A stretch of 64,000 nt of DNA from a virus. Taxonomy: Duplodnaviria > Caudoviricetes. Below, in pieces: positions 30,457 through 54,846 of this stretch. The notes below the pieces were generated by a model. The model ran no database searches. It saw nothing but the letters and a program-made list of their open reading frames with translations, and was not told the origin of the DNA. Made by a program: the position numbers and the translations under genes. How positions within the stretch are numbered: the stretch's first letter is position 1; each line of letters begins with the position of its first letter. The stretch lies in IMG/VR virus record IMGVR_UViG_3300031867_000022, positions 1 to 64,000 of that record, one strand, 5' to 3'.

Positions 30457-30532
30457 CGCGTGGCAGAGGAATCGAACCTCTGATTCTAGGGCCGCTAAGT
30501 CCGCTAGCGCTTTACCACTAAGTTAACCACGC
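30457..30532 (-). tRNA. tRNA-like element with an aberrant anticodon arm
   Basis: Acceptor GCGTGGT/GCCACGC, D loop AGTGGTA, T arm AGAGG-TTCGATT-CCTCT; anticodon arm CTAG-14 nt-CTAG. Confidence 0.65.
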
Positions 30533-39824: not shown

Positions 39825-39899
39825 TGGTCGCCCCACCATCGAGTCGAACCCGGACCTGGAGGGTTAGAGCCTCCCGTGCTACCGCTACACCATGGAGCA
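39825..39899 (-). tRNA. Amber suppressor tRNA (anticodon CTA), tRNA-Gln-like, CCA encoded
   Basis: TGCTCCA/TGGGGCG acceptor, GGTGTAGCGGTAGCAC D arm, GGAGG-CTCTAAC-CCTCC anticodon arm; irregular T stem. Confidence 0.88.
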
Positions 39900-47012: not shown

Positions 47013-47109
47013 CATCTCTGTTTACCACAGACTACAGCTCTATCTCTTCCACAAGGATGATATCTGAAAATAGTCTGTGGTCTTTGTTTGAAATCAATTT
47101 GAACAACAT

Positions 47110-47439
47110 ATGCAAATCACATTTACAGACGTTCATTGGAGAAATCAAGATGACTCCAACGTGTTCAACATGCACGCCATCAAAAGCATGACACTGGACA
47201 CAACAACATCTATCCTCACTATAGAGGGTACAACGAACACATTCTCAGCACCGTTTTGTGAACTCACCTACGGAGGTGGAGTTACTCATTTTGAGTTATT
47301 AACCAAACATCCGTATGAAACAGGAGAGTACATAAATATTGCAGTGTTTGAATCTACAAATGTGGTATGTGTAGCACATCATTCTCACAACGTTCCTGCG
47401 TGGTTTGAGAATAAGTGCAAAACACATGTACACGTCTAA
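47110..47439 (+). CDS. Hypothetical protein
   Basis: Preceded by a TTGAAATCAAT leader. Confidence 0.7.
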   Translation: MQITFTDVHWRNQDDSNVFNMHAIKSMTLDTTTSILTIEGTTNTFSAPFCELTYGGGVTHFELLTKHPYETGEYINIAVFESTNVVCVAHHSHNVPAWFENKCKTHVHV

Positions 47440-48635: not shown

Positions 48636-48696
48636 AATACTGTCGGGATGTAGATGTCCCCTGATGAGTCGTTGCAAATTACGACGAAACAGTATT
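48636..48696 (+). ncRNA. Type III hammerhead ribozyme
   Basis: AATACTGT-C | GGGA..TCCC stem I, CTGATGA core, GTCGT/ACGAC stem II, GAA, ACAGTATT stem III; GUC cleavage triplet ends at 48644. Confidence 0.9.
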
Positions 48697-53053: not shown

Positions 53054-53630
53054 GCAACTGTGACTAGTGATAGTCAAGTCAGCACATCATCCATAAAGCG
53101 AGAACCTAGAGTCAGTGCTTTATAAAACCCAAAATGTAGATTACAGATCAATAGTCCGTCTTTACACTATCGGTACACGTTTACAGATTAATTAAATGGA
53201 CGGTAGAGCACGACACTACATTTAATATAAGCAGAATTAACTGCAAGCAGTTAGAGTCTTGAGCCAACACTGTTAGGGTGATTAACACCGACCACACGGT
53301 GTAATAATATGTGGCCATTTGATCAAATAACTGCAATGTACGAGCCATTGAGTCGGTGCCACTGAGTGAGATGATATCAAAACTTAGACACTGCATTGTA
53401 TATCAAGAAATGCGGGTACAACCTATTCAGAACCTTAGAGTCAGCAATAGATCACTGTACCAAACTAAGGCCTTAAAAAGCCTCTCTAAGCGTTTCAAAT
53501 CCTTGAGTGGATTAGCTACCCATGATAGGGGGAGAAAATGCCTTAGAGAGGCTATAATACGGCTTAAATCGAATTCTGTGACTGATCATCACAGAGTTTA
53601 CTAGAGTGTACAACATTAAAATCAATTTAT

Positions 53631-53807
53631 ATGAAGTACGAAAATTCTATGCATCGATTCTTTCAAGTTAGTAGCGGAGTTTCCCTTATTATAGCAGGTA
53701 TAAGTATGCTAAAAGGCAATATGCAAGGTGCAACATTTGGTGTGCTTTTGGCCATACACTTAAACATGCTATCTTGGAATTATGAAGATTACGATGAGGA
53801 AGAATAA
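53631..53807 (+). CDS. Small two-TM membrane protein (58 aa)
   Basis: MKYENSMHRFFQVSSGVSLIIAGISML...FGVLLAIHLNML. Confidence 0.5.
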   Translation: MKYENSMHRFFQVSSGVSLIIAGISMLKGNMQGATFGVLLAIHLNMLSWNYEDYDEEE

Positions 53808-53829
53808 GAAATCTTAGCGTGTCCCAGGA

Positions 53830-54023
53830 TAAGTCGTTCGGACGGCGGTTCGATTCCGCCCAGGTCCACCTATATTAATAAATATGGGCTTGACTGGTTT
53901 AGACGGCGACAGAAAGTAAGACATCAAGCGCTTTGATATAAAAATTAAACGGCAACATAAACGTTGTTGACTACACGGGTCTCCAGGAGGCAGCGTGAAG
54001 TCGGTGAACCCTACCTAAGTGGG
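53830..54023 (+). ncRNA. ssrA: Circularly permuted (two-piece) tmRNA; outer boundaries approximate
   Basis: 3' acceptor half GGACGGCGGTTCGATTCCGCCCAGGTCCACC (53840-53870) precedes the 5' half GGGCTTGACTGGTTTAGAC (53886); G3.U70 pair; tag ORF GNINVVDYTGLQEAA* at 53951-53998. Confidence 0.88.
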
Positions 54024-54025
54024 GA

Positions 54026-54081
54026 GAGTGAGTAGCGTTAATTCGCCCAGGTACAGGTGGGTTCGAATCCCACACTCACTC
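54026..54081 (+). ncRNA. tRNA-like minihelix without an anticodon arm
   Basis: GAGTGAGT/ACTCACTC stem plus GTGGG-TTCGAAT-CCCAC T arm. Confidence 0.7.
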
Positions 54082-54171
54082 CTACGTCGTGAGACGCATT
54101 AGACTGTCTTAAAGGATAGTCTCTTTCGTGAATGGTAGGTGCAGGTGAAGTATAGTAGCCTGCACCGTAAT

Positions 54172-54340
54172 GGATCAATAGCTCAGTTGGTAGAGCAATA
54201 GAGATAAGCAAAAGATAGAGCTGTCACGGCTACATGGCTGATATAAACCGTGTAAAAAATGTGTAAAATTGATTTGTTTCAAACTATCATGGTGATTTGT
54301 TTATCTTTATAAGTCCCCGGTTCGAGCCCGAGTTGGTCCA
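54172..54340 (+). ncRNA. tRNA scaffold with the anticodon loop replaced by a 15-bp stem and an 83-nt insert
   Basis: GGATCAA/TTGGTCC acceptor, GCTCAGTTGGTAGAGC D arm, CCCGG-TTCGAGC-CCGAG T arm. Confidence 0.75.
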
Positions 54341-54354
54341 CAAACACATATCGA

Positions 54355-54846
54355 ATGAAAAAATCTGGATACAAGGAAATGTTGCGGGATAGATGTCCTG
54401 CAACAGTAAACTTTGCTCTTAAGTATTGCAATGCTAAAGAGCGTTGGATTGATCATGCTTACAATCAATTTATAAAGATATATGTAGATAATAATGAACG
54501 TAAACATACTACTCGTATTATCCTCGGTATTGCAAAATATTACAGAAACTTTATATTTGATAAAAGCATCGATTGGGAGAATCTCACCAAAGAAGAAGAA
54601 GCCTATTGGAAATGGGTATCAGCTTGGGTGAGGTGGTTCATGAAGAACTTTGCGTATATAGAAAATACGTATAAGATCTCTCGCTCTTGTGGAAAAGATG
54701 AATTTGACTGTAAAGTTGAAATCATCCAGAAGCACTTAAGTTCAAAGCTTCCTACAGAAGACGATGATGAAGAAACAAAAGCAAAAAAGCTAAAAGAAGT
54801 AAATAAACTTACCGATTATCTCGTCAAATGTATCAATGAAGTATAG
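54355..54846 (+). CDS. Hypothetical protein
   Basis: Intact ORF, TAG stop. Confidence 0.75.
   Translation: MKKSGYKEMLRDRCPATVNFALKYCNAKERWIDHAYNQFIKIYVDNNERKHTTRIILGIAKYYRNFIFDKSIDWENLTKEEEAYWKWVSAWVRWFMKNFAYIENTYKISRSCGKDEFDCKVEIIQKHLSSKLPTEDDDEETKAKKLKEVNKLTDYLVKCINEV

Follow-up and report, generated by a model that had tools for sequence, protein, structure and literature searches.

A tRNA-like gene on the plus strand of a gut phage genome, at positions 54172-54340 of the window (the whole stretch of 64,000 nt that was analysed), was found to carry a 113-nt folded module, here termed type A, as its anticodon arm. We tentatively favour the reading, held with slightly less than even confidence, that this gene makes a non-decoding RNA of tRNA shape, whose body attracts RNase P and RNase Z and directs CCA addition, and whose arm is a swappable module. 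This reading is favoured because no consistent anticodon was found, the whole arm is replaced, and unrelated or distantly related inserts sit on the same body in near-identical phages. The preliminary description of the locus had likewise taken the gene for a tRNA used as a scaffold and not for an ordinary intron-bearing tRNA, a view which the same three observations favour but do not prove.

The virus record of which the window is part is complete, with 100.6 kb and terminal repeats, and the nearest GenBank relative of the phage is the crAss-like phage cr273_1 of the family Suoliviridae. The phage is a TAG-recoded crAss-like phage from the gut. Reading TAG as sense in the minus-strand late genes raised the ORF coverage from 0.57 to 0.86 and the longest ORF from 660 to 5,051 aa, and ARAGORN called a suppressor tRNA:

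39825-39899, minus strand: suppressor tRNA(CTA).

Few viruses of the mammalian gut are as abundant as the crAss-like phages, and to our knowledge their non-coding RNAs are almost uncharacterised. The tRNA-like gene sits in a plus-strand early block of small ORFs that uses the standard code.

The body of the gene was examined by alignment to Rfam RF00005 (Infernal, relaxed filters). The stretch 54172-54340 aligned end to end, scoring 37.8 bits (E 3.5e-6; gathering score 29). The place of the anticodon loop, normally of 7 nt, is taken up by 103 nt. The stretch was called neither by the default gathering-mode Rfam scan of the whole window nor by default ARAGORN. The following parts were assigned, the D arm, variable loop and T arm by the RF00005 alignment (the D arm at high posterior probability):

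54172-54178, plus strand: 5' strand of the acceptor stem, GGATCAA, with 7 of 7 pairs to 54333-54339.
54181-54196, plus strand: D arm, GCTC-AGTTGGTA-GAGC, the same in the related contigs L123 and L124.
54311-54332, plus strand: variable loop AAGTC and T arm CCCGG-TTCGAGC-CCGAG.
54333-54340, plus strand: 3' strand of the acceptor stem, TTGGTCC, and discriminator A; CAA comes next and CCA is not encoded.

One of the seven acceptor pairs (GGATCAA/TTGGTCC) is a U.G pair, and acceptor positions 4-6 differ from those of the relatives' ordinary tRNA(CAU) (GGACTTA) with pairing kept or improved. The T stem of the window has one C50.A64 mismatch, whereas that of L123 is perfect; the T-stem pair 51-63 is C-G in the window and U-A in L123, both sides having changed. 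The cloverleaf body is maintained, with acceptor, D arm, T arm and conserved T loop giving an RF00005 score above the cut-off. The normal tRNA arms seen beforehand were thus borne out by a full-length match, apart from the one C.A mismatch in the T arm.

The anticodon arm is built from three parts:

54198-54212, plus strand: 5' strand of a 15-bp helix, its first 5 nt being anticodon-stem positions 27-31.
54213-54295, plus strand: inner insert of 83 nt with predicted stems, two copies of GTGTAAAA and a 7-nt bulge.
54296-54310, plus strand: 3' strand of the 15-bp helix, its last 5 nt being anticodon-stem positions 39-43.

The helix consists of 13 Watson-Crick and two G.U pairs and encloses exactly 83 nt, which reproduced the two lengths first given. 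In the inner insert TTTG words are abundant, GTGTAAAA occurs at 54250-57 and again at 54261-68, and the predicted fold leaves the 7-nt bulge ATGGTGA at 54289-95. The two internal stems proposed previously are both present as sequences, GATAG/CTATC at 54214-18/54284-88 and CACGG/CCGTG at 54225-29/54248-52; covariation support was found for neither, and the minimum-free-energy fold prefers a pairing that competes with the second. For the complete RNA a folding energy of -45.1 kcal/mol was computed (z = -2.77), which was not equalled by any of 200 shuffles. A mobile repeat or MITE was ruled out, as the insert occurs only once in the phage genome. The insert is real DNA and not an assembly artefact, because two independent ENA contigs of 77 kb and 104 kb carry the same arm with 94.7% identity and no indels.

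The surroundings of the gene have a fixed order, from a permuted tmRNA through a tRNA-like minihelix and a conserved hairpin to the slot occupied by the tRNA-like gene and then a 163-aa ORF:

53776-54089, plus strand: circularly permuted (two-piece) tmRNA, called by ARAGORN and by Rfam tmRNA_permuted at 71.1 bits.
54026-54081, plus strand: tRNA-like acceptor/T-arm minihelix, GAGTGAGT...ACTCACTC, lying with the permuted tmRNA in an arrangement that is the same in all relatives.
54138-54166, plus strand: conserved hairpin, GGTGCAGG...CCTGCACC, directly upstream of the slot and invariant in the window, L123, L125, L113 and L007.
54355-54846, plus strand: 163-aa ORF with 116 homologues, starting 14 nt past the tRNA-like gene.

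The hairpin was unchanged regardless of which tRNA came next. The minihelix probably marks the 3' end of the tmRNA coding piece for processing. In relatives its acceptor bears full but variable tRNA-like bodies without a usable anticodon, and the phage tmRNA has the tag VVDYTGLQEAA. The 163-aa ORF gave no Pfam domain and no PHROG match, and PHROG annotation of nine neighbouring ORFs returned a sigma factor only. The locus uses other anticodon-less tRNA-like modules beside the tmRNA, and therefore non-decoding processing units of tRNA shape appear to be normal here.

In order to compare inserts among relatives, as the preliminary description had proposed, relatives were located with the downstream 163-aa ORF as an anchor (protein cluster P0001, 178 sequences) and the slot was read in about 60 metagenome contigs with the intron mode of ARAGORN and with Rfam. 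In cr273_1 and in most of the close relatives (90% identity or more in the downstream protein), the slot is filled by an ordinary 75-nt tRNA(CAU), and in more distant relatives by a tRNA-Gln or by tRNA(CAU) and tRNA-Leu. The tRNA(CAU) is annotated as Met, and from what we take to be a likeness to E. coli ileX its family is probably an AUA-reading tRNA-Ile2. The comparison yielded at least three insert types in this one slot, all of them minority alleles. Type A, with its 113-nt arm, was found in the window and in the two ENA contigs (L123 and L124; ERZ27280606, ERZ28612972). Type B has a 49-nt arm, a helix of about 13 bp closed by an invariant 10-nt loop AGGUGUAAAG, and was found in seven contigs as four sequence variants; its body also differs, with G3.U70 in the acceptor and discriminator A73. 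Type C (L136 and L281) has an 80-nt arm, in which three helices (4, 4 and 9 bp) surround an apex of 44 nt. The inserts of types A, B and C were found in no GenBank phage, and IMG/VR gave no match to exact patterns taken from the type A junction, the type B hairpin or the conserved leader hairpin.

The body of type C is letter for letter that of the ordinary tRNA(CAU) of L113, and the differences are limited to positions 27-43, stem included, where the whole 17-nt arm is replaced by 80 unrelated nt. Judged from this comparison, type C is a cassette exchange and not an insertion, because the body is identical to the L113 tRNA and the entire arm including its stem has been replaced. Moreover, types A and C have a core in common that was found by local alignment:

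54236-54258, plus strand: core common to types A and C, GGCTG-AT-ATAAACCGTGTAAAAA in one and GGCTGTATAATAAGCTGTTTAAAAA in the other.

The two cores match at 21 of 25 positions with two gaps (p = 0.0175, 2,000 shuffles), and the helix strands are also similar, although the bodies are different. The occurrence of this 25-nt core and of similar helix strands on different bodies suggests that the insert may be the moving unit, exchanged by recombination through the conserved D-arm and T-arm sequences. As a separate observation, in some relatives the tmRNA is separated from the slot by a further tRNA-like gene of 82 nt (L007:2736-2817; also in L128, L133 and L134); this gene has an irregular arm of about 33 nt that is nearly constant and holds no credible anticodon, and its acceptor and T stems vary by compensatory changes between lineages.

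The insert could instead be an intron of an undescribed kind, similar to those of the Lak phages, that host enzymes remove to leave a working tRNA; we regard this as unlikely, although a serious alternative. Double-strand-specific or other endonucleases and then host RtcB could do so, giving Lys(UUU) in the window and Glu(UUC) in L123, and the anticodon, being interrupted until splicing, could be protected from anticodon nucleases. The tRNA body is kept in shape, which speaks for an intron, as do the tRNA genes with inserts that occur widely in viral contigs, many of these genes having a clean anticodon loop and the insert at 37/38. Lak phages, furthermore, show polymorphism for the presence or absence of introns between close genomes (10.1101/356790). 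The description of the Lak inserts fits the gene as an anticodon-region insert that is polymorphic between close genomes and is not a group I intron, in a family that is defined by description alone. The possible products of splicing were tested by making 7-nt loops from the first k and last 7-k nt of the arm for every k; U33 and a purine at position 37 were required. On the standard stem of 5 bp, types A, B and C had no split with U33 and purine 37, whereas a control tRNA passed, so that neither directly nor after removal of the insert does the gene have the loop expected of a decoding tRNA. With a shifted 6-bp stem, type A offered the candidate anticodons TTT/TTC, ATT/ATC, AAT/AAC and AAG/AAA (window/L123). 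All of these differ between the two phages, and a splice product read in this way would change its amino-acid identity between phages that are 95-99% identical in this region and 96-99% identical in the neighbouring genes. The intron mode of ARAGORN was able to draw a cloverleaf with a 94-nt intron, which favours the intron, and read one of the two phages as Lys, the other as Asp. A further point against an intron is type C, where even the anticodon stem has been replaced. Finally, a suppressor tRNA whose anticodon would be made by the last 7 nt of the insert (UUA in the window and UCA in L123, both stop-reading) was rejected for its U at position 37, which is almost never found in real tRNAs.

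Known routes of removal were examined in the same way. A group I intron was rejected, as the insert has 103 nt against more than about 200 nt for the P3-P9 core and the Intron_gpI model had no match at E ≤ 10 in 53600-54600; the initial remark that the insert was too short for such an intron therefore holds. A bulge-helix-bulge intron (two 3-nt bulges around a 4-bp helix, usually at 37/38) was also rejected, with the junctions lying inside an unbroken 15-bp helix. Both results, as well as the lack of any match to a ribozyme model, count against an intron. The search of the region for small self-cleaving ribozymes (hammerhead, twister, pistol, hatchet, HDV-like) had no match at E ≤ 10, whereas it detected, as a control, a hammerhead elsewhere in the window. 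This type III hammerhead lies at 48637-48695 on the plus strand, in an intergenic gap of the early block (Rfam 49.8 bits, gathering score 48.5). None of the splicing enzymes searched for, namely the tRNA_int_endo splicing endonuclease (EndA), RtcB and Rnl2-type ligase, is encoded by the phage, which is a further point against splicing; RtcB was found in Bacteroides thetaiotaomicron, the search control and representative of the host phylum, a point in favour of removal by host enzymes.

Membership in two known classes of tRNA-like RNA was rejected as well. The gene is not a tmRNA, since its acceptor has A3-U70, there is no credible tag frame, and the upstream gene is the only one called by ARAGORN and the Rfam tmRNA models. 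Neither is it a YrlA/Y RNA: RF02553 gave no match at E ≤ 10 and no TROVE (Ro60) gene was found in the phage. B. thetaiotaomicron, the control in the TROVE search, has Rsr, a possible partner in the host.

Selection on body and insert was assessed from the differences between the window and L123. The type A arm differs at 6 of 113 positions (5.3%) and its inner 83 nt at 2 (2.4%), as compared with 2-7% at third codon positions of three neighbouring genes, so that no purifying selection on the type A insert was detectable. The 5' strand of the 15-bp helix has one change in L123 (G to A), which keeps the pair, and the 3' strand has three, one of which turns a G.U into a G-C pair whereas two give A.C mismatches, affecting two of the ten extension pairs. 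Type B behaved differently. Its three variable positions are all helical (C-G to U.G, U.U to U-A, G.U to G-C), all three changes keep or repair pairing, and the loop never varies. The conservation of helices could be a survivorship effect, with unstructured inserts not being tolerated in the tRNA fold.

These data bear on another explanation, in which the tRNA body is punctuation for RNase P and RNase Z between the tmRNA transcript and the mRNA, decoding has been lost, and the insert is neutral or selfish palindromic filler. An insert that diverges no more slowly than synonymous-like positions, an extension helix that gains mismatches in L123 and a T stem with a mismatch in the window are what this explanation would predict. 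It also agrees with the highly variable content of the slot (tRNA(CAU), tRNA-Gln, tRNA-Leu, inserts) and with the anticodon-less minihelices that already serve as apparent processing signals in the locus. It would require, on the other hand, that three different long near-perfect hairpins arose or were imported at one place, and it leaves unexplained the core common to types A and C across different bodies, as well as the invariant loop and the exclusively pair-preserving changes of type B. A plain processing signal does not need 113 nt, and an insert that is unique in the genome is no spreading repeat. We consider the filler explanation unlikely, although as serious an alternative as the intron.

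At the DNA level, the insert might act as a promoter cassette or as a recombination or replication hairpin, with the tRNA context being incidental. Extended -10-like words were seen by eye in the alignment of types A and C (TGATATAAA, TGTATAAT), and the insert is rich in TTTG. Against this, Bacteroidota promoters use motifs other than -10-like words. A consensus scan found no plus-strand promoter-like or terminator-like site between the tmRNA and the downstream ORF, and thus no such promoter inside the gene. The precise swap of one RNA helix for another, together with the pair-preserving changes in type B, points to selection on RNA, and an action at the DNA level appears very improbable.

Under the favoured scaffold reading, the gene would be derived from the tRNA(CAU) family of the slot by exchange of the anticodon arm (27-43) for a self-folding module of 113 nt. 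An early plus-strand transcript would span the tmRNA, the minihelix, the hairpin, the tRNA-like gene and the ORF after it. The intact acceptor/T-arm body would direct cleavage by the host enzymes RNase P and RNase Z, CCA would be added, and a stable RNA of about 170 nt would accumulate, with the module exposed at the tip of the 15-bp helix. The tRNA body would thus provide processing and stability, and the module would be the working part, exchanged from phage to phage by recombination through the D and T arms. Its likeliest class of function would be that of a decoy or sponge for a host factor in counter-defence. The divergence of the insert, the A.C mismatches in L123, the C.A in the T stem of the window and the ordinary tRNA in most relatives all weigh against the scaffold reading.

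It had been proposed that the insert encodes a small RNA complementary to an early leader at 47086. The sequence GTTTGAAATCAATTT is present there, but its pairing proved to be within chance: the duplex of this site with the insert segment ranked 31 among 20,082 genome windows, and the leader region against the whole insert ranked 355 or worse of 4,008 and was unremarkable for types A, B and C. The suggested target prediction, run genome-wide, thus did not single out this leader. A perfect 12-nt complement of insert positions 54213-54224 was found at 47034-47045, 50 nt upstream of 47086, where it lies in the loop of a 10-bp hairpin (CCACAGACTA...TAGTCTGTGG, 47025-47080) in the gap before an ORF at 47110; about 1.2 such 12-mers were expected and three were seen, which corresponds to chance.

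A likeness to CRISPR repeats was found by local alignment within the insert:

54269-54292, plus strand: likeness to the 5' half of type II-C repeats from Bacteroidota (TTGATTTG-TTTCAAACTATCATGG).

The stretch scored 24 against the published B. fragilis repeat (PMC6390457), with p = 0.003 from 1,000 shuffles in a comparison that was picked post hoc, and matched repeats from 120 genomic arrays at 22 of 24 positions at best (Chitinophagaceae repeats). The match spans 24 nt of the 47-nt type II-C repeat. The single-base gap of the alignment falls where the repeat:anti-repeat duplex naturally bulges, so that the core TGATTTGTTTCAAA (54270-83) could pair without interruption over 14 positions with the anti-repeat of the tracrRNA in Bacteroides loci; this site ranked 4 among 25,150 windows of the phage genome for duplexes with the anti-repeat. 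The 5' strand of the 15-bp helix contains GATAAGCAAA, which bears a loose likeness to the type II-C anti-repeat (GAAAGCAAA). The insert also has a direct repeat, TGATTTGTTT, at 54270-79 and 54293-302, by which the CRISPR-like stretch would seem to be a copy of the helix strand duplicated within the insert, a point that weakens the lead. Apart from AAGCAAA the insert had no significant similarity to Bacteroides tracrRNA, and full mimicry of an sgRNA or tracrRNA was rejected, the rest of the insert being unlike tracrRNA. Mimicry by types B and C was likewise rejected, as nothing comparable was found in them. Among 401 Bacteroidales genomes none had a closer host repeat (at most three mismatches), five genomes with type II-C systems yielded chance matches only in BLAST, and 120 type II-C loci contained no spacers against the phage. 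In Bacteroidota genomes the type II-C tracrRNA itself is conserved (L146:6301-6400, L195, L220, L173), with an anti-repeat (..TTTGAAGCAAATCACAAT) followed by AAGGATTATTCCGTTGTGAAAACATT and a terminator hairpin.

It is a long shot that the type A module might be a tRNA-scaffolded RNA anti-CRISPR, in which TGATTTGTTTCAAA(CTATCATGG) would copy the 5' half of the host type II-C repeat. Such a module would pair with the tracrRNA anti-repeat without the natural bulge, and either the tracrRNA would be titrated or Cas9 would be loaded with a guide-less RNA. The tRNA body would give precise processing and high stability, and the other insert types would be cassettes against other host factors. Two kinds of RNA anti-CRISPR have been described, the Racrs, which are solitary repeat units (PMC10651486), and rAcrIIA1, an sgRNA mimic for Cas9 (bioRxiv 10.64898/2026.06.03.729762). 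In both, small phage RNAs copy the CRISPR repeat and misload or titrate Cas components, and the 24-nt repeat-like stretch of type A resembles them in this respect. Type A, in contrast, matches only half a repeat, and types B and C match none; moreover, no tRNA embedding has been reported for Racrs, whereas the type A stretch sits in a tRNA body.

Oversized or irregular tRNA-like genes were also observed elsewhere. On the minus strand of the window, a tRNA at 30457-30532 (Rfam 42 bits) has an oversized anticodon region CTAG-CGGACTTAGCGGCC-CTAG; default ARAGORN missed it, and the intron mode reads it as Ala(agc) with a 3-nt insert. Several IMG/VR contigs contain tandem arrays of 112-118-nt tRNA-like units (L326:3833-4185, L351:611-1269, L283:10101-10768, L320:11026-11137) with varied bodies. 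The anticodon loops of these units are replaced by a common module, which consists of an A-rich linker, a compensatorily varying hairpin and (U/C)UAACAGCAA..GUUAAA, and the arrays have a weak YrlA match across two adjacent units (33.7 bits against a gathering score of 69). Finally, viral tRNA-Ile(UAU)-like genes (IMG/VR L290, L292, L312, L334, L362, L372 and others) carry an insert of about 38 nt at the canonical position 37/38 that pairs with the anticodon in the style of archaeal and eukaryal introns.

If the RNA accumulates unspliced, it would be a natural counterpart of the engineered tRNA scaffold, with a display arm swapped as a cassette between near-identical phages, a pattern typical of arms-race genes. 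It would also offer a handle on the many oversized and unclassifiable "tRNAs" of phage genomes. If it is spliced, an undescribed route of tRNA splicing must exist in bacteria or their phages.

Among known systems, the Lak megaphages, which infect Prevotella, have "enigmatic" introns in tRNA genes, the removal of which was never demonstrated (Devoto et al., 10.1101/356790). The likeness extends to phages of gut Bacteroidota, an alternative code and short anticodon-region inserts that are not group I introns and are polymorphic between close genomes. The Lak inserts, however, leave a readable anticodon (Phe, Gly, Thr, Tyr), whereas here there is no consistent loop and the anticodon stem is swapped too. 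The tRNA-like domain of tmRNA, which the phage itself encodes 83 nt upstream, resembles the gene in having an acceptor/T-arm body whose anticodon arm has become a long helix leading to a functional domain. The gene differs from it by a full D stem and by A3-U70 instead of the alanine determinant G3.U70, which type B does have. In the YrlA-type Y RNAs of bacteria and phages (RF02553), a non-decoding tRNA-like module (D arm, T arm and acceptor-like helix) that is processed by tRNA enzymes is joined through its "anticodon" position to a long protein-binding helix. YrlA, in contrast, is the circular permutation, with a closed acceptor and with both ends of the RNA in the long helix, and its conserved GGGGAA/UUCCCC helix is absent from the phage gene. 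The closest parallel in architecture is man-made: in the scaffolds of Ponchon and Dardel, a lengthened helix bearing a cargo RNA reportedly takes the place of the anticodon stem-loop of a tRNA (Lys or Met). Such scaffolds are treated by the cell as a tRNA would be, in both processing and stabilisation; the phage gene, known from its sequence, has the same architecture and is natural.
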